NCBI RefSeq assembly: GCF_027492855.1
Contig: NZ_JAPUDY010000067.1
Span: 1,541 to 65,540, forward strand
DNA length: 64,000 nucleotides
Direction of reading: 5' to 3'
Source of the DNA: Acidovorax sp.
GTDB taxonomy: Bacteria > Pseudomonadota > Gammaproteobacteria > Burkholderiales > Burkholderiaceae_C
In this document: in pieces, positions 8,108-43,189 of the stretch
How the letters are laid out: each line of letters starts with the position of its first letter
How positions within the stretch are numbered: position 1 is the first letter of the stretch
Made by a program: the position numbers and the translations under genes
Notes under the pieces: generated by a model
The model's input: only the letters and a program-made list of their open reading frames with translations
Told to the model about the DNA's origin: nothing
The model's database searches: none

Positions 8108-8152
8108 GCTCCAGCGCTTATCTAACAAGCGCAAGCAGCTATCAAATTTGAT
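8101..8152 (+). repeat. R1 repeat, copy B; occupies the entire acnD-prpF spacer and contains the acnD stop codon
   Basis: aaaataggctccagcgcttatctaacaagcgcaagcagctatcaaatttgat, followed directly by the prpF ATG at 8153. Confidence 0.85.
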
Positions 8153-20332: not shown

Positions 20333-21250
20333 ATGACCCCCCAAGACCTCAAATCCATCATGGGCTCCGGCCTGCTGTCCTTCCCGATCACGGACTTCGA
20401 CGAACAGGGCGAATTCCGCCCCAAGACCTACATCGAACGCCTGGAATGGCTCGCCCCCTACGGCGCCAGCGCCCTGTTCGCGGCGGGCGGCACGGGCGAG
20501 TATTTCTCGCTCTCCGGCCCGGAATACAGCCAGGTCATCAAAACCGCCGTGGACACCTGCCGTGGCAAGGTGCCCATCATTGCCGGCGCCGGTGGCCCCA
20601 CCCGCACCGCCATTGCCCATGCACAAGAGGCCGAGCGCCTGGGCGCCCACGGCATCCTGCTGTTGCCACATTACCTGACCGAAGCGGGCCAGGAGGGCCT
20701 GATCGCCCATGTGGAGCAGGTTTGCAAAAGCGTGAAGTTCGGCGTCATCGTCTACAACCGCGACCGCACCAAGCTCACGCCCAACTCGCTCGCCATCCTG
20801 GCCGAGCGCTGCCCCAACCTGATCGGTTTCAAGGACGGGGTGGGCAACATCGAGGTCATGTCCTCCATCTACATGAAGATGGGCGACCGTTTCTCGTACC
20901 TGGGCGGCCTGCCCACGGCCGAGGTGTATGCCGCAGCCTACAAGGCGCTGGGCACCCCGGTGTATTCGTCTGCGGTGTTCAACTTCATCCCCAAAACAGC
21001 GATGGACTTCTACAAAGCCGTGGCGGCCGACGACATGGCCACACAGCACAAGCTGCTCAAGGAGTTCTTCATGCCCTACCTGGCCATCCGCAACCGCGTG
21101 GAAGGCTATGGCGTCTCCATCATCAAGGCAGGCGCCAAGATCGTGGGCCACGACGGCGGCCCCGTGCGCGCACCGCTGACGGACCTCAAGCCCCATGAAA
21201 TGGAAGAGCTCAAGGCGCTGATCGACAAGCTCGGGCCGCAGTCAGCTTGA
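20333..21250 (+). CDS. kdgD: 5-dehydro-4-deoxyglucarate dehydratase (DapA/DHDPS family)
   Basis: 305 aa with [28 protein letters not shown] and [12 protein letters not shown], which are KdgD-type signatures. Confidence 0.8.
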
Positions 21251-22189
21251 TCACAGCAACGTCACGCCCTTGAGCGTGACGAAACTCGTCTCGCGGACCA
21301 CGCCCACAAAGTCCTGCAGGTATGGCTTGCCTGACACCTGCGGCAGGCAGGCCGCGTGCAGCTCGCCCATCAGCCCCGGCGCACCAGGCATCGCGGCAAT
21401 GGGCCGGGCCGTGACGTAGCCCCGGTCCAGATAGCCCTGCACCGCCCACAGCGGCAGCGCGGCCACCCCGCGCCCGCTGGCCACCAGTTGCAACATGGCT
21501 ACCGTCAACTCGGTGGTGCGCCGGGGCGGGCGCACTCCGGCGGGCTCCAGCACCTGGCGGACCAGGTCCAGCATCTCGTCGGGCACCGGGTAGGTGATCA
21601 CCGTCTGGTCGGCAAAGTCTTGCGCGGTGAGAAACGGCTTGGCGACCAGCGGGTGTGCATTGGCCAGCAGCGCACGGATCTCAAAGCCGAACAGCGGGTG
21701 GTAGTCCACCCCCGCCTCATCCGCATCCACCTCCGACACGATGGCGAGGTCGGCCCGCCCCTGGTGCAGCAAGCCCACCGGGTCGGCATGAAAACCGCTC
21801 ACGATGTCCAGCTCCACCTCGGGCCAGCGGGTGCGAAATGCGTCCATGGCGGGCATCAGCCAATCGAAACAGGTGTGGCATTCCACGGCAATGCGCAACT
21901 GGCCGCCCTGCCCCAACACCAGCCGGGCCACATCGCGCTCGGCCGCCTCGATCTGCGGCAGCACCAGATCGGCCAGGGCCAGCAAGCGCTCGCCCACCGC
22001 GCTGAACTGCGGCGGCACCGACTTGCGCTCGAACAGCGGTGTGCCGTGGCGGTCCTCCAGCAGCTTGACCTGGTGCGACAGCGCCGACTGGGTGAGGTTG
22101 AGCAACTGCGCGGCCCGCACCAGGCTGCCGCTGTCGCGCAACGCCACCAGGGTGCGCAGGTGGCGTATTTCCAGAATCGATTGATTCAT
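21251..22189 (-). CDS. metR: LysR-family activator of methionine synthesis
   Basis: 312 aa, MNQSILEIRHLRTLVALRDSGSLVRAAQLLNLTQSALSHQVKLLE. It is divergent from metE. Confidence 0.85.
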   Translation of the reverse strand: MNQSILEIRHLRTLVALRDSGSLVRAAQLLNLTQSALSHQVKLLEDRHGTPLFERKSVPPQFSAVGERLLALADLVLPQIEAAERDVARLVLGQGGQLRIAVECHTCFDWLMPAMDAFRTRWPEVELDIVSGFHADPVGLLHQGRADLAIVSEVDADEAGVDYHPLFGFEIRALLANAHPLVAKPFLTAQDFADQTVITYPVPDEMLDLVRQVLEPAGVRPPRRTTELTVAMLQLVASGRGVAALPLWAVQGYLDRGYVTARPIAAMPGAPGLMGELHAACLPQVSGKPYLQDFVGVVRETSFVTLKGVTLL

Positions 22190-22297: not shown

Positions 22298-24676
22298 ATG
22301 ACGCTCGCCCAGCCCTCCCCCGCCCGCCCCGTGCTCACCCACACCCTGGGCTTTCCCCGCATGGGGGCGCAGCGCGAGCTGAAGTTCGCGCTCGAATCCT
22401 TCTGGCGCGGCGACTTGGGCGCTACCGACTTGCAAGACACCGCCGCCCAACTGCGCCAACAACACTGGCAGGCCCAGGCCGACGCGGGCCTGGGCTTTGT
22501 CACCGTGGGCGACTTCGCGCTGTACGACCATGTGGCCAACCACATCCAGCTACTGGGCTGCGAACCTGCGCGCTTCGCGTTCGACGGCGCCACGCCAGAG
22601 CTGGCGCGCTACTTCGCCATGGCGCGCGGAGTGTCGGCCACGGCCACACACACGGACCTGGGCTGCAGCACGGGCTGCACTGCGACACACACCACGCCGG
22701 GCCAGAGCGCACTGGAAATGACCAAGTGGTTCGACACCAACTACCACTACCTTGTGCCCGAGTTCAGCGCCAGCACGCGGTTCCACCTCGCCAGCGAGCG
22801 CCTGTTCGACGAAGTGGCCGAGGCCCAGGCCCAGGGCCACAAGGCCAAGGCCGTGCTGCTGGGGCCGCTGAGCTTTTTGTGGCTGGGCAAGGCCAAGGAG
22901 GCTGGGTTCGACCGCTTCAGCCTGCTGGCGCAACTGCTGCCGGTGTACGAGGCCGTGCTCGCCCGCCTGAAGGCCCAGGGCGTGGAATGGGTGCAGATCG
23001 ACGAACCCATCCTGGGGCTGGATCTGCCCGACACCTGGCGCCACGCCTTCGAGCCCAGCTACTGGCAACTGGCCCGCAGCGCGCCCCCACTGCTGCTGGC
23101 CACCTACTTCTCGCCCCTGGCCGAAAACCTGCGCCTGGCCTGCCAGCTGCCCGTGGCCGGCCTGCATGTGGATGCCGTGCGCGCCCCGGAGGAACTGGTG
23201 GGCGTGGCCGACTGGCTGCCCTCGCACAAGGTGCTGTCGGTGGGCATCGTCGATGGCCGCAACATCTGGCGCACCGACCTCGATGCCGCCCTGGCCCGCC
23301 TCGCCCCCGTGGTCGCCAAGCACCAGGGCGCGCTGTGGCTGGCGCCCTCATGCTCGCTGCTGCACGTGCCGTTCAGCCTGCAGGCCGAAACACAGCTGGA
23401 TGCCGAGGTGAAATCCTGGCTGGCCTTTGCGGTCGAAAAGCTCGACGAGCTGAGCGTGCTGGCCACCGCCCTGGGCCAGGGCGAGGCCGCCGCAGCCGGT
23501 GCCCTGTTGGCCGCCCGCACCGCTATCGCCGCGCGCCGCAGCAGCCCCCGCGTGCACCGCGCCACCGTGGCCGCGCGCCTGGCAGCCGCAGCGCCGGGGG
23601 CCGACCAGCGCACCAGCGCGTTCCCCGCGCGCCAGCAGGCCCAGCGCGCACGCTTGAAGCTGCCGCTGCTGCCCACCACCACCATCGGCTCGTTCCCGCA
23701 GACCGCCGAGATCCGCGCCGCCCGCGCGGCCTTCAAGCGCGGAGCGCTGGACGCTGCCCACTACGAAGAAAAGATGCGCACCGAAATCGCCCTGGCCGTG
23801 CGCAAGCAGGAAGAGCTTGGCATCGACGTGCTGGTACACGGCGAGGCCGAACGCAACGACATGGTTGAATATTTCGGCGAACAGCTCGACGGGTTTGCCT
23901 TCACCGCCAACGGATGGGTGCAAAGCTACGGCTCGCGCTGCGTGAAGCCGCCCATCATCGTCGGCGACGTGGCCCGCCCCGCGCCCATGACCGTGGCCTG
24001 GACGCGGTACGCGCAAAGCCTGAGCAGCCGCCCCATGAAGGGCATGCTCACCGGCCCCATCACCATCCTGCAGTGGAGCTTTGTGCGCGACGACCAGCCC
24101 CGCGCCACCACCGCCGACCAGATCGCCTGGGCCATCCGCGACGAAGTGTGCGACCTGGAAGCCGCAGGCATCGCCATCATCCAGATCGACGAACCCGCCA
24201 TCCGCGAGGGCCTGCCGCTGCGCCGCGCCGGGTGGAAGAGCTACCTTCAGCGCGCCACACGCGCCTTTCGCATCAGCGCGAGCGGCGTGCGCAACGACAC
24301 GCAGATCCACACCCACATGTGCTACAGCGAGTTCAACGACATCCTGCCCGAGATCGCGGCCATGGACGCTGACGTGATCACCATCGAGACCAGCCGCTCG
24401 GACATGGAGCTGCTGCAGGGCTTTGGCACTTTTCAATACCCCAACGAGATCGGCCCCGGCGTGTACGACATCCACTCGCCCCGCGTGCCCAGCGTGCAGG
24501 AGATGACCGCGCTGCTGCACAAGGCCGCCGAGGTGGTGCCGGTGGAAAACCTCTGGGTCAACCCCGACTGCGGCCTCAAGACCCGAGGCTGGCCCGAGAC
24601 CGAGGCGGCGCTGCGCCACATGGTGCAGGCGGCGCAGGAGGTGCGGGCGCAGTTGGAGGAAGCCGTGATTGCATAG
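22298..24676 (+). CDS. metE: Cobalamin-independent methionine synthase
   Basis: ATG at 22298 ([33 protein letters not shown]), 792 aa, with [12 protein letters not shown] and the C-terminal motifs IQIDEPA and HMCYS. Confidence 0.92.
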
Positions 24677-24713
24677 TCGAATTGGCCGATTTCGCGGACA
24701 CGCGGACAGGACA

Positions 24714-25127
24714 CTACATGAGGTCGCTAATCGCTCGACGAATGAATGTTTGGAAGTCAGGGGCAACTACATCTACGCGTCTATCTATCGGGTCAATCTC
24801 AACAACTTCCCAGCTATCAGTTTGGAAACCAGCGTTAAACCCCTGAAAGTCATCGCCAAGCAAAATTACTTTTTCCAGTTGCGGTGGCATCGGCTCTCCA
24901 AACACGAACTCAGATTCACCCAACCCGCTGTAGATCATGTACTGAGCTTGCCCTATTTCGCCAAACCCTATAGTGGTCAAGAAGGATATGTAATCGCTAG
25001 GCAGATTGGGATAGCGATCTACCAGCTTTTGGAGCTTTGCCGGCTCAAGTGGCTTCAATTTGGCCAGTAAAGAACCCTGACCTCTCAACGTAAATAGATC
25101 GTCGTAAATTCCCATGTCACGCCTCAT
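24714..25127 (-). CDS. SUKH/SMI1-KNR4 family immunity protein
   Basis: 137 aa in a low-GC stretch, with [19 protein letters not shown] typical of SMI1/KNR4. Its ATG overlaps the TGA of the upstream HNH reading frame (ATGA). Confidence 0.75.
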
Positions 25128-25638
25128 TCATTAAAGAGCCAACGCGCAGGTCCGCCTGCGCGATGGATACCGCCCTGATGTTGATCAGGCCACCTAGCCA
25201 GATGAATGTTCCACCATGTGGCTGGTCCACCGCAACCGTTCTCAATGTAATGATGTGCATCATAGGGTTGTCTAATTTCTTTGAAGACATTGCCATTTTT
25301 ATCAACTACCTGCTCTTTATAGGTCGGCCAGTGCCGACCTGTTTGGACTTCCCATTCGCTAATTAAATCACTCTTGACTCTGTTGAACTCAGTGCGATTT
25401 TTTTCGCATCTCCCGGAGAGAATCGGCTGTACGAGTTTGTTCGCAAATCTTCAGCCAAGTGAGCCCACTGCTCGCGCGTTATCGAAATATCTGTTTGCGC
25501 CTCAATGTCCCGGAGATACGAACGAGCATTCGCGGTCGACCAACCGCTTCCCGCTGGCAGTAGCGTGCCTTGCACTCTTGACGCGATCAAGGCGCTTGAC
25601 GCCTGCGCCGTCAGCGTCTGTTTATAGGTCCCTGTCAT
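25124..25638 (-). pseudogene. Colicin/pyocin-type HNH DNase toxin, split by a frameshift at an A7 tract (orphan toxin module)
   Basis: Frame A runs from ATG 25638 (MTGTYKQTLTAQ..SPGDAKK) and stops at 25363. Frame C has no ATG/GTG/TTG and reads [91 protein letters not shown], ending at 25124. This gives an HH..GG..N..H..IH pattern like the colicin E9 DNase. The two frames overlap at the T7 run 25398-25404 on the plus strand (A7 in the gene sense). Confidence 0.65.
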
Positions 25639-25647
25639 TGCACCAGA

Positions 25648-25744
25648 CCCGACTGCGGCCTCAAAACCCGAGGCGGCATTGCGCCACATGGTGCAGGCGG
25701 CGCAGGAGGTGCGGGTGCAGTTGGAGGAAGCCGTGAGCGCGTAG
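25648..25744 (+). pseudogene. Displaced duplicate of the metE 3-prime end (remnant)
   Basis: cccgactgcggcctcaaaacccgaggc..cgccacatggtgcaggcggcgcaggaggtgcgggtgcagttggaggaagccgtgagcgcgtag matches metE 24563-24676, apart from a 17-nt gap and a few mismatches. Confidence 0.85.
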
Positions 25745-25746
25745 CC

Positions 25747-25806
25747 AAATGAGCTGCCAGCGCTTTTTCAACAAGCGCTGGCAGCTCTCCTGTTAATAGC
25801 AAACAA
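25747..25806 (+). repeat. R1 repeat, copy E
   Basis: aaatgagctgccagcgctttttcaacaagcgctggcagctctcctgttaatagcaaaca, with a perfect 13-bp stem GCTGCCAGCGCTT/AAGCGCTGGCAGC. Confidence 0.8.
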
Positions 25807-25861
25807 ATACGTGACTGGCAGCACACACCGCCCTATGCATGTCCGCTGCTTGGCTCATAGT

Positions 25862-25890
25862 CCTGATTGGCGCAAAATGCGCCAATCAGG
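25862..25890. promoter_or_regulatory. Perfect 13-bp inverted repeat overlapping the ribosome-binding site of the ParD-like gene (candidate operator or translational hairpin)
   Basis: cctgattggcgca-aaa-tgcgccaatcagg, followed by the overlapping aggagaaaacc and ATG at 25899. Confidence 0.5.
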
Positions 25891-25898
25891 AGAAAACC

Positions 25899-26222
25899 AT
25901 GACCGCCACCGCATTTGCATCCGTCAAGCTCCCCAGCGTCCTGGTGGAGCAAGCCCGGCAGGCTGCGCAACCCATGCGCCGCTCGGTCGCCAGCCAGATC
26001 GAATACTGGGCCACGCTGGGCCAGATCGTTGAACACACGGGCCTGAGCGTGCAAGAGGCCCGCACCGCCATTGAGCAATACGAAGCCGCCCCGCGCGCCC
26101 AGGCCACAACCCCTGCCTCGGTGGACGCACTGACCGCCCGCCTGCTGGCCGCGCAGGCCAACGGCTCGCTGGCCCAGCGCGTGCGCGACGTGGTGCGCGA
26201 AAACCAGGCGCGCGCCACCTGA
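25899..26222 (+). CDS. ParD-like (PF11903-type) antitoxin family protein; no adjacent toxin gene
   Basis: 107 aa, MTATAFASVKLPSVLVEQARQAAQPMRRSVASQIEYWATLGQ, with a good SD sequence. Confidence 0.6.
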   Translation: MTATAFASVKLPSVLVEQARQAAQPMRRSVASQIEYWATLGQIVEHTGLSVQEARTAIEQYEAAPRAQATTPASVDALTARLLAAQANGSLAQRVRDVVRENQARAT

Positions 26223-26370
26223 AGGCATACCCGCACCCCACGTGGCAACAACCGCAACACGTACACGAAGGCGGCCACCCGCGCCGCTCGAACGCATCCT
26301 GGCGCTGGCTGTGTGCACATATAGAGATCACCCACAGTGGTTCGACTAACTATATTGAAACTCCCTTACT

Positions 26371-26946
26371 ATGAAAATAATGAAGCATCTTGTCCTCTCA
26401 ATATTCTTAGTAACGCTCGCCGCCATAAAGCTCAGTGGATGCGCCGGCACCCACCGAGAAGGTTTGCGAATGGTTCAAACCAAAGATGCACATGAGATCG
26501 TGCTACGTAAACCAGTGCGCTTTGATGCCATAGCTGTGGGTGGTGGTAATACTCATTGGTATCACGGACTCGAAGCGGGGCGCTATCGAGTGGAAGCAGT
26601 GGATGATGCTGGGGATTACTACCTTGGTGAAGGGAAGTCCCTTGTTCTGGGCGCCTCTCGGGCGCCGGACGGGCAGGTAAGTGAACCACTCACGATGGGA
26701 GGATTCTGGCTCGCCCGCGACCCAAGGGCTCAGCCCGCGTTCAAGCTCTACCGTGTAAACCCGAAAAATTCAGACGGAAGTGAGATACCGGAGAGCTTAC
26801 GAATGGGCATCATTCCTTACGCAATCGACAACCTCTCTGGCAATCGACTTGGCATTGGGGTTTGGAGTTGGCAATTTGTGCCGATGCTTCACCGCGAAGA
26901 TGATCTGGACCGGCTTACGGATGCAACTCGATTCGTAGAAAAATAG
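26371..26946 (+). CDS. Hypothetical lipoprotein (low-GC islet)
   Basis: 191 aa with a signal peptide and lipobox (AAIKLSGC). GC is clearly below that of its surroundings. Confidence 0.65.
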   Translation: MKIMKHLVLSIFLVTLAAIKLSGCAGTHREGLRMVQTKDAHEIVLRKPVRFDAIAVGGGNTHWYHGLEAGRYRVEAVDDAGDYYLGEGKSLVLGASRAPDGQVSEPLTMGGFWLARDPRAQPAFKLYRVNPKNSDGSEIPESLRMGIIPYAIDNLSGNRLGIGVWSWQFVPMLHREDDLDRLTDATRFVEK

Positions 26947-27078
26947 CGCCAAGTTGCAAGATCAAACCATGCGCACGCCAACGATCACGACGGCGCTGGT
27001 CGATAGGCTGTCTGCCTGGGCACAGCACATGCTGTCGGGTAGTCCCAACTGCGTACAACTGTGTGGCCTGCCCTCTCT

Positions 27079-28035
27079 TTAGACGGCTGCAGCCTTCCCC
27101 GCCTCCGCCAACTTCACCAACACCTGCAGCGCCCGGTTCAGCGGCGTGGGCACGCCCAGCGCGGCACCGCGCTTGACGACGTAGCCGTTCAAGTGGTCGA
27201 TCTCGCTGGGCTTGCCGCGTGCCAGGTCTTGCGCGGTGGAGGAATACTGGCCCGGCATGGTGGCCGCGATGCCGCGCACGGCGGCCTCCACATCGCCGGG
27301 AATCACCACGCCATCGGCCTGGGCCACGGCCAGGCACTCGGCCACCGTGTCGGCGATCACGTCCGTCACGCCCGGCGCCTGCACCAGCGCGCCATAGGGC
27401 TGCTGCGACAGGGCCGACAGCGCGTTGTAGGCGCAGTTGAGCACCAGCTTGGCCCACAGCGCGCCGTGCACGTTGTCTGAAATCTGCGTGGCAATGCCCG
27501 CCGCCGCAAACTGCCGCACCACCTCGTCGCTGCGTGGCGACGGCGCAATCACCAACTCGCCCCGTCCATGGTGCTGCACATGGCCCGGCCCCGGCATGGC
27601 GGTGGCCACATACACCACAGCGGCCGCCACGGGCGTGGAGCTGTCCAGCACGGCACGCACCCGCTCGTCGTTGTCCACGCCGTTTTGCAGCGTCAGCACC
27701 AGCGCACCGGGCGCCAGGTGGGGCCGAATCTGCTGCGCCGCGTCTTCCGAGTCGGTCGATTTCACGCAGAACAGCACCACATCGGCACCCGCCGCTGCGC
27801 TGGCCTCGGTGCTGGCCTCCATCGGCACCTGCACGTCCAGCACCGCCGTCTGCAGGCGCAGCCCCCGCTGGCGGATGGCCTGCACATGGGCGGGGCGGCC
27901 GATCAGCGTCACCACATGCCCGGCCCGCGCCAGCAGCGCGCCAAAGTAGCAGCCCACCGCGCCCGCCCCCATCACGGCGATGCGCAACAAGGCGGGCTCT
28001 GAGGCGGTGTGAACAGGGGCGGAAGAGGCGGTCAT
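27079..28035 (-). CDS. panE: 2-dehydropantoate 2-reductase
   Basis: ATG at 28035, 318 aa, with IAVMGAGAVGCYFGALLARAG (Rossmann fold) and a ApbA/PanE C-terminal region (SSTAQDLARGKPSEIDHLNG). Confidence 0.8.
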   Translation of the reverse strand: MTASSAPVHTASEPALLRIAVMGAGAVGCYFGALLARAGHVVTLIGRPAHVQAIRQRGLRLQTAVLDVQVPMEASTEASAAAGADVVLFCVKSTDSEDAAQQIRPHLAPGALVLTLQNGVDNDERVRAVLDSSTPVAAAVVYVATAMPGPGHVQHHGRGELVIAPSPRSDEVVRQFAAAGIATQISDNVHGALWAKLVLNCAYNALSALSQQPYGALVQAPGVTDVIADTVAECLAVAQADGVVIPGDVEAAVRGIAATMPGQYSSTAQDLARGKPSEIDHLNGYVVKRGAALGVPTPLNRALQVLVKLAEAGKAAAV

Positions 28036-28132
28036 GGCAGGGTCCTGAATGACAAAAGAGGTTCGATTTGGCCAGGAACTATAGCCAGCGAAGGAAGTGG
28101 CTTCGCCATACAGGTGTATTCGGGTGCATGGC

Positions 28133-28192
28133 AAAAAAATACCACTGGCGCTTATCTACAAAGCGCAAGCAGCTATTAATTGAATAGCAAAA
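28133..28192 (+). repeat. R1 repeat, copy F (in the panE / marR divergent region)
   Basis: aaaaaaataccactggcgcttatctacaaagcgcaagcagctattaattgaatagcaaaa. Confidence 0.85.
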
Positions 28193-41606: not shown

Positions 41607-42098
41607 TTAGGCCGCATTTTCGCCGAACGTGCAATAGACGACCCTGAACCGTTCGCAAGCGACCGGCATGGACGGGCTTGGGATGCGACCAATGCGGGCG
41701 CACTCTCTTGCAAAGTAGGCCGTGTGTACTTCGCGCCAGTACTCAAGCGACCCGTCTCCTTCGCCCTCTGTGGCCGCGAACTCTGCTGTGACCTCCGAAA
41801 ATGGCGTGATGTCGACTTGAGTCGTTTCAATCACGCACACCGGATGCCCGTCCCAGGTTGTGACCACGCTGAGATCCCCCGGCTTTGGAGTCGGCATGTT
41901 CGCCGCCTCGAACGACCAAACCAGACCGGCAGTGGCCCGCTTGACTCCGCGCACCACCAGCTCTGCCAGGTGATTGGCGCTCGGCTCGTTGTCGTCGAAG
42001 ACGCAGACTTCGAAGAACCTGGCGTCGACATCCACGGATTGCGTGGCCTTGAACGCGCTCCAGAACGTGCGAACGACGGGGGTCATGGGTGCTGGCAT
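41607..42098 (-). CDS. ASCH domain protein
   Basis: 163 aa with FWSAFKATQ..ANHLAELVVRGVKRATAG, an ASCH/PUA-like pattern. Confidence 0.6.
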   Translation of the reverse strand: MPAPMTPVVRTFWSAFKATQSVDVDARFFEVCVFDDNEPSANHLAELVVRGVKRATAGLVWSFEAANMPTPKPGDLSVVTTWDGHPVCVIETTQVDITPFSEVTAEFAATEGEGDGSLEYWREVHTAYFARECARIGRIPSPSMPVACERFRVVYCTFGENAA

Positions 42099-42157: not shown

Positions 42158-42805
42158 TTAGGTGTCTGTTCCAACTTGGTCCCAATTATTTTCCCCGTCG
42201 TACCGGATCATCCAATTCACGGCACGGTGCCATTCTTGAACTACGCCTCCGTTAATACCATTGAGCGGAGGTGCCCCGTTCAGCCTCGCGTCTCTAACCG
42301 CCCAATGAAGCCTGTACATGAGGTCTGCACGGTCAAGTACCTCGCTCACGCCGCGAGGCCGAATCTCCCTGCGAAGACGATCTGGAGGCTCCAGGCCAGA
42401 AGGAAACAGCGGAAGTATTGGCTTGACGCTTGATTCCTCATCTGGAAGAGCAGCGATTTCTAACAGACCCGCACACCAGGCAACAAAGTAAAGCGCTTCG
42501 AGTTGCCAAGAGAAATGGATTGTGTCTTGGTCTGTAGGGCTCTCCGCAAAGAGGAACTGGCGCTCCTTCTCGGATAGGTAGGCTTGCATCCGATGTGCCG
42601 CAATGTATTCGGCCGTCTTGGATTCTTCGCGGAGGAATGCCTTGTCAACGACGGACCAGAGTGCGATCAGACGGTGGAGCAATTCGTCCGCGGAGCGAAG
42701 CTCGACTTCGTCTTCAGATTCGATGAGTGGCAAGTAGGCATTGACCGAAACGTTGTGCGTTCGGAGTAGCTCTTCTGATGAGGTCTTGCGATCTTGAGGA
42801 AGCAT
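42158..42805 (-). CDS. Hypothetical protein, possibly DUF4272 family (low GC)
   Basis: ATG at 42805, 215 aa. The C-terminal LMYRLHWAVRDARLNG..VVQEWHRAVNWM resembles DUF4272 as I recall it. The family name is tentative. Confidence 0.5.
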   Translation of the reverse strand: MLPQDRKTSSEELLRTHNVSVNAYLPLIESEDEVELRSADELLHRLIALWSVVDKAFLREESKTAEYIAAHRMQAYLSEKERQFLFAESPTDQDTIHFSWQLEALYFVAWCAGLLEIAALPDEESSVKPILPLFPSGLEPPDRLRREIRPRGVSEVLDRADLMYRLHWAVRDARLNGAPPLNGINGGVVQEWHRAVNWMIRYDGENNWDQVGTDT

Positions 42806-43189
42806 GTGCGAGACACCTAACGTAATGTATCCCGCAAAACCTGCGGGATAAACTGGACCATGCGGGATATTCTGGACACTTAATCCTCCTGAAAGCGGCT
42901 TACAGCCTGGGTTTGCAGCCGTTGCGCTGTTCCAATACCCAAGTATAAAAATTCCGGGAAACCCGGCAACTCCAACCTCCCAAACTATAGCCAGCGAAAG
43001 CACGGCGCCTGGGCCTCAACAGGCTCTTTTCAGACCGCGCAAATGGGGGGCTGCGAACCAGTGACCGTGTGCGGCCCAAGCTCGCCCCCATCTTCGGACC
43101 CACAGGCTTGGTACGCCGTTGCGCGAGCACCACCGCCAAAGCGCCCTTCTCCTACCCAGCCTGGGGCGCTTTTCCGCTAAGGTGGCGGA

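Follow-up and report, generated by a model that had tools for sequence, protein, structure and literature searches.

The DNA considered here is a window of 64,000 nucleotides (nt) from contig NZ_JAPUDY010000067.1 of Acidovorax sp., and the locus in question lies at the 3' end of metE (22298..24676, + strand), the gene for the cobalamin-independent methionine synthase, which is intact, is read in a single frame of 792 aa, and is preceded by the gene for a LysR-type regulator. The MetE of the window is 100% identical to a protein of an Acidovorax sp. entry (P0011) and 88–92% identical to other Acidovorax MetE proteins. Behind metE follow a segment of low GC content, bearing on the opposite strand an immunity gene and the remains of a nuclease-toxin gene, and then a second copy of the metE end, which copy is in turn followed by a palindromic repeat of a family here called R1.

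The tail of metE repeats 1,085 nt downstream, with 24563–24589 matching 25648–25674 at 96% over 27 nt and 24600–24682 matching 25668–25750 at 90% over 83 nt. The first of the two, copy A (24563..24688, +), comprises the last 114 nt of metE—that is, the working terminus, ending in ..EEAVIA-stop—together with some 12 nt that resemble the start of R1; the second, copy B (25648..25750, +), is a displaced terminus ending in ..EEAVSA-stop, which sequence is noncoding because a deletion of 17 nt shifts its frame. The initial annotation, made from the letters of the window, had described just such a duplicate, with a 17-nt gap, a few mismatches, and these two endings, and all of those particulars are reproduced. 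Besides the deletion, copy B differs from copy A by 7 substitutions, 4 of which are synonymous. The 17 nt missing from copy B are flanked in copy A by the 7-nt direct repeats CCGAGGC (24583–24589 and 24600–24606), and the loss is evidently a slippage-type deletion. A weak similarity between the copies extends for about 12 nt beyond the stop codon into the start of R1 (24677–24688 and 25745–25756; compare 8377–8387 in the relative L088 introduced below). Copy B does not belong to any other gene, intact or otherwise, the sole long frame that crosses it being the antisense run-on of the toxin ORF (open reading frame).

The GC content between the copies, as taken from the two genes located there, is 47%, against 69% in metE and 65% in the window, in agreement with the clearly lower value that had been noted; the length assigned to that low-GC insert, 971 bp, needs to be corrected, since upon exclusion of the duplicated DNA the insert covers 24689–25647, or 959 nt.

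The gene nearest to metE (24714..25127, − strand) is intact, and its AlphaFold2 (AF2) model and its paired homologues mark the product as a predicted immunity protein with the SUKH/SMI1-KNR4 fold. The product would have 133 aa if translated from MGIYDD (ATG 25115), or 137 aa if translated from the ATG at 25127, which latter codon is overlapped by the toxin stop in the form ATGA. The protein scores under the Pfam cut-offs for both of the relevant models—SUKH_6 at E = 1.5e-4 (22.7 bits; cut-off 27) and SMI1_KNR4 at 17.3 bits (cut-off 25.4); among 60 homologues, SMI1_KNR4 was matched by 40 and SUKH_6 by 35, with best E values of 3.8e-9 and 3.5e-9, respectively. The AF2 model reached a predicted local distance difference test (pLDDT) score of 94.8, and the best folds in the PDB were 3D5P, of the SMI1/KNR4 family, and 2PRV, the YobK of Bacillus subtilis, along with Knr4, at a probability of 1.0 and template-modeling (TM) scores of 0.60–0.67. 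The likeness to SUKH proteins such as YobK (2PRV) thus resides in the fold (TM 0.65–0.67) and in the position of the gene directly after that of a nuclease toxin, and the difference in a score that stays under the curated Pfam cut-off (22.7 versus 27 bits). In addition, proteins 37–83% identical to this one follow a homologous toxin at three other loci (L084, L085, and L089). A scan for promoters and terminators returned nothing above the shuffled expectation and nothing able to serve a toxin–immunity operon.

The toxin gene upstream on the same strand (25124..25638, −) is a pseudogene, consisting of the frameshifted and 5'-truncated C-terminal HNH-type DNase domain of a polymorphic toxin. Its first frame opens with the ATG at 25638 and is closed by a stop codon at 25363, whereas the conserved C-terminal part continues in another frame down to 25124. 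The lesion is a deletion of 1 nt within a run of 7 T (+ strand; A7 on the coding strand) at 25398..25404, as seen in the alignment to the intact homologue of the metagenome contig L089 (AAAAGCAAAT versus AAAA-AAAT), and when one A is restored in that run the result is a protein of 171 aa that is collinear with ten homologues. The repaired toxin contains the signature D-A-H-H..E..GG..WWN.H..P..HQGGIH, of which DAHH, E, WWN, and HQGGIH are invariant across 11 sequences and present in the window copy, and in the window toxin the nearly invariant Pro of 'HPA' is replaced by Leu. No direct match was obtained for the toxin in Pfam or NCBIfam, and PF01844 (HNH) was touched only at an E of about 0.1 by 4 of 11 sequences, namely the ten homologues plus the repaired window toxin. 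The profile of the toxin family, for its part, matches PDB 8CM0, the C-terminal domain (CT) of Serratia marcescens Rhs2, at E = 3.9e-12, with both halves of the domain involved and with inclusion of the HHIIxxxxGG..WWN segment. A 2025 preprint (bioRxiv 10.1101/2025.10.28.685041) reports DNase activity for that Serratia protein and classes it as an atypical, metal-dependent enzyme of the HNH type, which the type VI secretion system delivers. The AF2 model of the window CT was poor, at a pLDDT of 63.5 and with the catalytic half below 50.

Since all the neighbouring genes read in one frame, the frameshift in the toxin is not part of a general assembly problem. A programmed frameshift at the A7 run was considered and rejected: the homologues are single ORFs, the zero-frame context makes a poor slippery heptamer, and the toxin has no delivery domain, only about 24 codons of a carrier being left. 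The toxin is dead, in that it cannot be made in one piece or delivered, and the truncation plus the frameshift mark a decayed orphan rather than a live pair. With respect to the HNH toxin and SUKH immunity gene that the initial annotation had placed on the opposite strand, then, the type of the pair stands, upon the match to 8CM0 and the SUKH fold, but not the intact toxin frame, in view of the 1-nt deletion at 25398–25404 and the 5' truncation.

The limits of the cargo could be drawn by comparison with L089, a contig of 2.1 kb found in an exhaustive search with the immunity protein, to which its own immunity protein is 83% identical. In L089 the toxin domain is in frame and closes an ORF that, being cut off by the edge of the contig, counts at least 464 aa; the immunity gene starts 8 nt further on. 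The window shares with it a swappable module of toxin CT plus immunity gene (24707..25570, −) at 80.6% DNA identity over 866 nt; and the homology ends, on one side, about 8 nt beyond the immunity stop codon and, on the other, at the codons for ..GSGWSTANA, which limits indicate that the mobile unit is the toxin C-terminal domain together with its immunity gene. To the left of this module, a spacer (24689..24706) separates it from the R1-like stub. To its right, upstream of about 25570, where DNA homology to L089 is absent, lies the stub of a different pre-toxin body (25576..25647, −; about 24 codons; GC 0.60; TGTYKQTLTAQASSALIASRVQGTLL), which stub borders on copy B, its end lying 9 nt beyond the apparent toxin ATG on the upstream side, and has no matching protein in a set of 5.8 billion proteins. 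The ratio of nonsynonymous to synonymous substitution rates (dN/dS) between the window module and that of L089 was 0.06–0.08 in toxin and immunity gene alike, indicating that the toxin was under selection until recently and that the frameshift is young.

Across 83 loci of the toxin family, the domain terminates ORFs whose lengths range from about 100 aa up to over 1,800 aa, the carriers including CdiA-type proteins with Fil_haemagg_2/DUF637 (1120 aa to at least 1806 aa), LXG proteins, PT-TG pre-toxins, and the end of an Rhs core (P0001). A homologue of the immunity gene stands directly downstream of the toxin in 32 of these loci; and a Shewanella homologue, likewise orphaned, is found behind Rhs genes and is followed by a SUKH gene. 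The carriers in L089 (3–1397; at least 464 aa) and in the locus L142 (779–4078; 1100 aa) have N-terminal bodies without a Pfam match and may use delivery domains as yet undescribed. Searches with the cassette DNA gave no plasmid match, only the metE ends being matched, and the plasmid-borne relatives of the toxin are distant. Exact look-ups of the MetE and immunity proteins of the window, and of P0011, yielded no record. All in all, the cargo is, as judged from these comparisons, an ordinary orphan polymorphic-toxin module with its toxin half dead.

To establish which copy of the metE end is the resident one, we compared the region downstream of metE in six Acidovorax relatives (L081–L083 and L086–L088). 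Each of the six has a single metE end, and duplication without cargo was not seen in them. In L081–L083 a convergent ApbA/PanE gene lies 13–120 nt after metE; in L087 the order is metE-ParD-zeta-ApbA; and in L088, metE-R1-ParD-zeta. From copy B onwards, the window is collinear with L087 and L088 through R1, ParD, two zeta fragments, and ApbA, and the R1 that directly follows copy B (25751..25787; inverted repeat I1) is a perfect palindrome of the R1 family situated where L088 has its own R1 after the metE stop, so that both the R1 behind the duplicate and the proposed status of that duplicate as the original terminus, as first annotated, gain support. Since copy B continues into native downstream DNA, it is the resident terminus, and copy A plus the cassette constitute the addition; the resident order was accordingly metE-R1-ParD-zeta-ApbA.

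If copy B is native, the question remains of where copy A came from. Both copies have one codon fewer than the relatives and a QLEEAV tail absent from them, which features place the copies in the same narrow lineage; 2 derived states are common to the two copies. Over 86 well-aligned coding columns, the 4 differences between A and B all fall at columns that are polymorphic among the six relatives, with both states present there, and include a linked pair, GCA TTG, also found in L082; at the 57 columns invariant in the relatives no difference was found (0/57; Fisher p = 0.011). Copy B, moreover, carries no private substitution at invariant columns, its only peculiarity being the 17-nt deletion. 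The confinement of the differences to sites variable among relatives indicates that the copies are two alleles, and hence that the incoming DNA brought its own metE end, in line with the replacement end that had been postulated at the outset; on this inference, copy A is the allele that belongs with the incoming cassette.

This same evidence bears on the notion of a local event within one genome, in which foreign DNA would have been captured at a break or by a replication template switch, along with a tandem duplication of about 126 nt whose copies then diverged in place. Such a scheme needs but a single event and no special donor arrangement, and the 17-nt slippage deletion does demonstrate that copy B decays. 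A noncoding copy, however, should drift at random, whereas none of the 57 invariant columns has changed in copy B and all the A/B differences, the GCA TTG pair of L082 included, are polymorphisms of the relatives; furthermore, a single toxin lesion and a dN/dS of 0.06 speak for a recent arrival, which circumstance is hard to reconcile with a 7% divergence between the copies. We therefore regard a local origin as improbable.

Two alleles on one contig could also result if an assembly had joined two coexisting strains through metE, as might happen in a metagenome-assembled genome, which origin of the bin is assumed here and unconfirmed. But copy B has a frameshifting deletion of 17 nt and abuts the toxin stub, and thus does not derive from an intact metE of another strain; both junctions are unique sequence; and the neighbouring genes are intact and collinear with those of relatives. 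An assembly chimera is in consequence barely credible.

The reading that we tentatively prefer, while giving it somewhat less than an even chance, is that the locus holds a decayed orphan toxin–immunity module, brought into this Acidovorax chromosome along with the 3' end of metE from a donor strain closely related to the recipient. The donor would have carried full-length toxin and immunity genes convergent to metE, inserted in an R1 about 12 nt past the stop codon. A homologous crossover between the donor fragment and the recipient would have taken place inside metE, and the other end would have been joined illegitimately, such that the interior of the donor toxin gene met the recipient metE 114 nt before its stop codon. 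The process would be homology-facilitated illegitimate recombination, reportedly encountered in naturally transformable bacteria (de Vries and Wackernagel 2002; Prudhomme et al. 2002), although a Campbell-type single crossover of a circular fragment would lead to the same product: a working metE with the donor tail, then the cassette, then the old tail of the recipient as a noncoding relic, from which 17 nt would later have been lost by slippage. A homologous crossover combined with an illegitimate join, the simplest single event, would leave a truncated stub at the junction, a foreign allele on the left, and the native allele on the right, and would require no recombinase. As regards the R1 in the donor, the left junction of the cassette seems to lie about 12 nt inside one R1 copy, and the roughly 11 nt of R1-like sequence after the copy A stop, placed as in L088, weakly suggest that the donor cassette was positioned just inside R1 behind an intact metE.

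Several points weigh against this proposal. The allele argument draws on 4–7 sites only, and the R1 similarity after the copy A stop on only about 11 nt. Neither a donor nor a conspecific empty site was found, in consequence of which the crossover points and any microhomology at the junction are not visible: MetE alleles ending in QLEEAV are unique to this contig, the exact DNA pattern of that lineage-specific tail (GCGGGYGCAGTTGGAGGAAGCCGTGA) had 0 metagenome matches, and a contig search with the MetE C-terminus gave, among the matches listed, only distant metE loci (best 83%, Diaphorobacter) and no conspecific empty site. In a sliding-window comparison of metE with three relatives, no change in divergence marked an import tract and no breakpoint appeared. 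When an end is joined illegitimately in homology-facilitated recombination, DNA of the recipient is as a rule lost and not duplicated; a literature search on duplications in that process turned up nothing usable; and natural transformation is not established in this organism.

Homology alone might do still more. In a variant that we hold to be highly doubtful, the cassette would be passively mobile without an integrase: RecA would loop out a circle between the metE repeats of about 120 nt, the circle would carry off one metE end, and once taken up by a related cell it could, by a single homologous crossover, re-enter any metE without harm to the gene. Were this so, the end of a housekeeping gene would act as a portable homology handle by which immunity genes, or toxin–immunity pairs, spread within a species complex.

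The main rival to entry with a donor metE end—an unlikely explanation in our estimation, though one with precedents—is that the locus is the remnant of a site-specific integrative element, namely an island or an integrative and conjugative element (ICE) decayed to an islet resembling a cis-mobilizable element (CIME), whose attachment (att) site was the metE 3' end from the PDCGLK-coding stretch onwards and which itself bore the 3' part of the gene, whereby metE was rebuilt upon integration; copies A and B would then be attL and attR, and the integrase plus most of the island would later have been deleted, with only the toxin tip and the immunity gene left over. In keeping with this view, foreign low-GC DNA is bracketed by direct repeats that stem from a housekeeping 3' end, metE is restored, the left edge of the repeat falls where the DNA of the metE 3' region is best conserved, and copy A is foreign-like and copy B native-like, as attL and attR would be; and there are documented cases, at the 3' ends of rpmG, rpsI, fda, and rplL, of elements of 1.2–13 kb that lack an integrase but retain their att repeats (PMC7563491). 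An integrase gene, on the other hand, is found neither between the repeats nor elsewhere in the syntenic block at 20–33.5 kb of the window, in which, as originally stated, an Rhs gene is likewise missing; an extra deletion would have to be assumed, with one end within the toxin gene and precisely at the edge of the repeat; and we found no paper on integration at metE. Searches by tblastn of the whole 64-kb window with one tyrosine integrase and one DDE transposase detected nothing, with the limit that outside 20–33.5 kb no gene-by-gene scan was made; nor does the window have an Rhs gene, a second toxin copy, tRNA genes, or Rfam matches.

The initial annotation had taken the metE end for a docking site, which idea finds no backing: among the metE loci compared with their 6-kb flanks, 6 of them close and 80 distant, none had a further fragment of the metE 3' end, and none of the 83 toxin-family loci adjoins metE. 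A second metE match, in L049 (2019–6582, Paraburkholderia caffeinilytica), was examined as a displaced end and rejected, since that locus contains two tandem full-length metE paralogues. Since the site was not found in use in these other loci, there is no showing of a dedicated mechanism of integration, and generic recombination suffices for the structure.

As with the orphan modules of Rhs and contact-dependent inhibition (CDI) loci, the cassette consists of a carrier stub, a variable low-GC toxin CT, and the cognate immunity gene, with no start region of its own, and its CT is also borne by Rhs, CdiA-type, and LXG carriers as well as by the Shewanella orphan behind Rhs; unlike those modules, the one in the window is not behind a main rhs or cdiA gene but stands alone, convergent to a housekeeping gene, with metE and ParD for neighbours, its duplicated handle is the metE end instead of the end of a toxin core, and its toxin is frameshifted. 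With the CIMEs at fda, rpsI, and rpmG of streptococci (PMC7563491) it has in common the form of an integrase-less islet between direct repeats of a housekeeping 3' end, with the gene left intact; but metE has no known related ICE, integrative and mobilizable element (IME), or integrase, the cassette is not accompanied by a tandem partner element, occupied metE sites did not turn up at other loci, and each repeat, about 120 nt long, is one of two alleles that have diverged, as opposed to the short identical core of a CIME. In the case of homology-facilitated illegitimate recombination, the likeness is that foreign DNA is linked on one side to homology and joined arbitrarily at the other end, here with truncation of the toxin, and that no recombinase gene is needed; the differences are that the window exhibits a duplication of recipient DNA in place of the usual deletion, and that the process itself is here inferred. 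As to the Rhs2 CT of Serratia marcescens Db10 (8CM0), with which the toxin-family profile match connects the module (E = 3.9e-12), its immunity protein RhsI2 is described as an alpha-helical new fold (bioRxiv 10.1101/2025.10.28.685041), whereas the protein here is a SUKH protein, and the toxin copy in the window is a pseudogene that lacks an Rhs body. The locus represents an unusual placement of a known kind of module, brought about most likely by generic recombination, and not a new system.

Beyond R1, the ParD-like antitoxin gene, in this lineage the native neighbour of metE (25899..26222, +), is intact (PF11903, E = 1.2e-11; 82–86% DNA identity to L087 and L088) and is preceded by a 14-nt perfect palindrome (25861–25891; I10). 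The zeta toxin gene (26253..27034, +), as recognized by BLAST against the zeta gene of L088, is a wreck of which the fragments 26253–26305 and 26967–27034 are left, and between them lies a second low-GC insert (26306–26966, 661 nt) with a lipoprotein-like ORF of 191 aa (26371–26946), for which only 4 homologues were found, all hypothetical and one of them in Acidovorax sp. SUPP950. Zeta was thus evidently destroyed by a deletion and a second low-GC insertion, with ParD remaining intact. The ApbA/PanE ketopantoate reductase gene (27079..28134, −; Pfam ApbA, E = 1.1e-40; synteny) comes next.

The site of ParD-zeta varies with the strain: the metE/ApbA gap in the window (25861–26305) and in L087 (8422–9445); directly after metE, with ApbA not adjoining, in L088; and the ApbA/MarR gap in L081 (9567–9920) and L083 (9461–10487); the pair is absent from L082. 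In every case the 14-nt palindrome upstream of parD is the point from which homology begins. In addition, the last five or so MetE codons covary in Acidovorax with the downstream neighbour (window 24650–24676 and 25718–25744; L081–L083 and L086–L088), the tails being E(E/A)ALA before ApbA; EEAFS, EEEMSL, or EEAVSA before ParD-zeta; and WPAHAAA before MarR. The junctions of accessory DNA seem, from these alignments, to fall repeatedly inside the metE tail.

As to R1, a repeat of the REP (repetitive extragenic palindromic) type, its 14-nt core has 11 matches in the window at ≤2 mismatches, versus 1.65 expected, and about 7 of these align as full palindromic R1 units, at 8127, 9384, 17512, 25752, 28161, 33499, and 40595, in intergenic gaps; the rough consensus is TTGCTAT..ATAGCTGCTTGCGCTTGTTGATAAGCGCT.GAGCC.ATTTTT.

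Upstream of metE (window 21241–21254 versus L087 1707–4954), the genes for a DUF4440 protein, a 2-hydroxyacid dehydrogenase, and an M20 peptidase, which in relatives lie between the dihydrodipicolinate synthase (DHDPS) gene and the gene for the metE regulator, are missing, so that the upstream region is variable, too. Farther away, the third-largest low-GC patch (about 0.50) encodes a DUF4272 protein (42161–43003, −; Pfam E = 1.8e-51) and adjoins an ASCH-domain gene (41610–42098); DUF4272 has reportedly been proposed as an immunity family of polymorphic toxin systems, and in that event 42161–43003 may be another orphan immunity gene.

For the biology of these bacteria, the locus illustrates cleanly how toxin tip and immunity gene can depart from their carrier locus and settle behind a gene of an essential pathway that stays unbroken, where the toxin may then die and the immunity gene live on; next door, ParD-zeta presents a parallel outcome, with zeta wrecked and ParD intact. 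The short gap between metE and ApbA is, in Acidovorax, a site where accessory modules pile up, and the toxin serves as a pointer to a little-described family, related to the Rhs2 CT, that lacks a Pfam model. The cassette itself may at most protect its host against neighbours that deliver this DNase, provided that the immunity gene is transcribed; and the survival of that gene lends support to the idea that cells retain orphan immunity genes as a shield against their neighbours.

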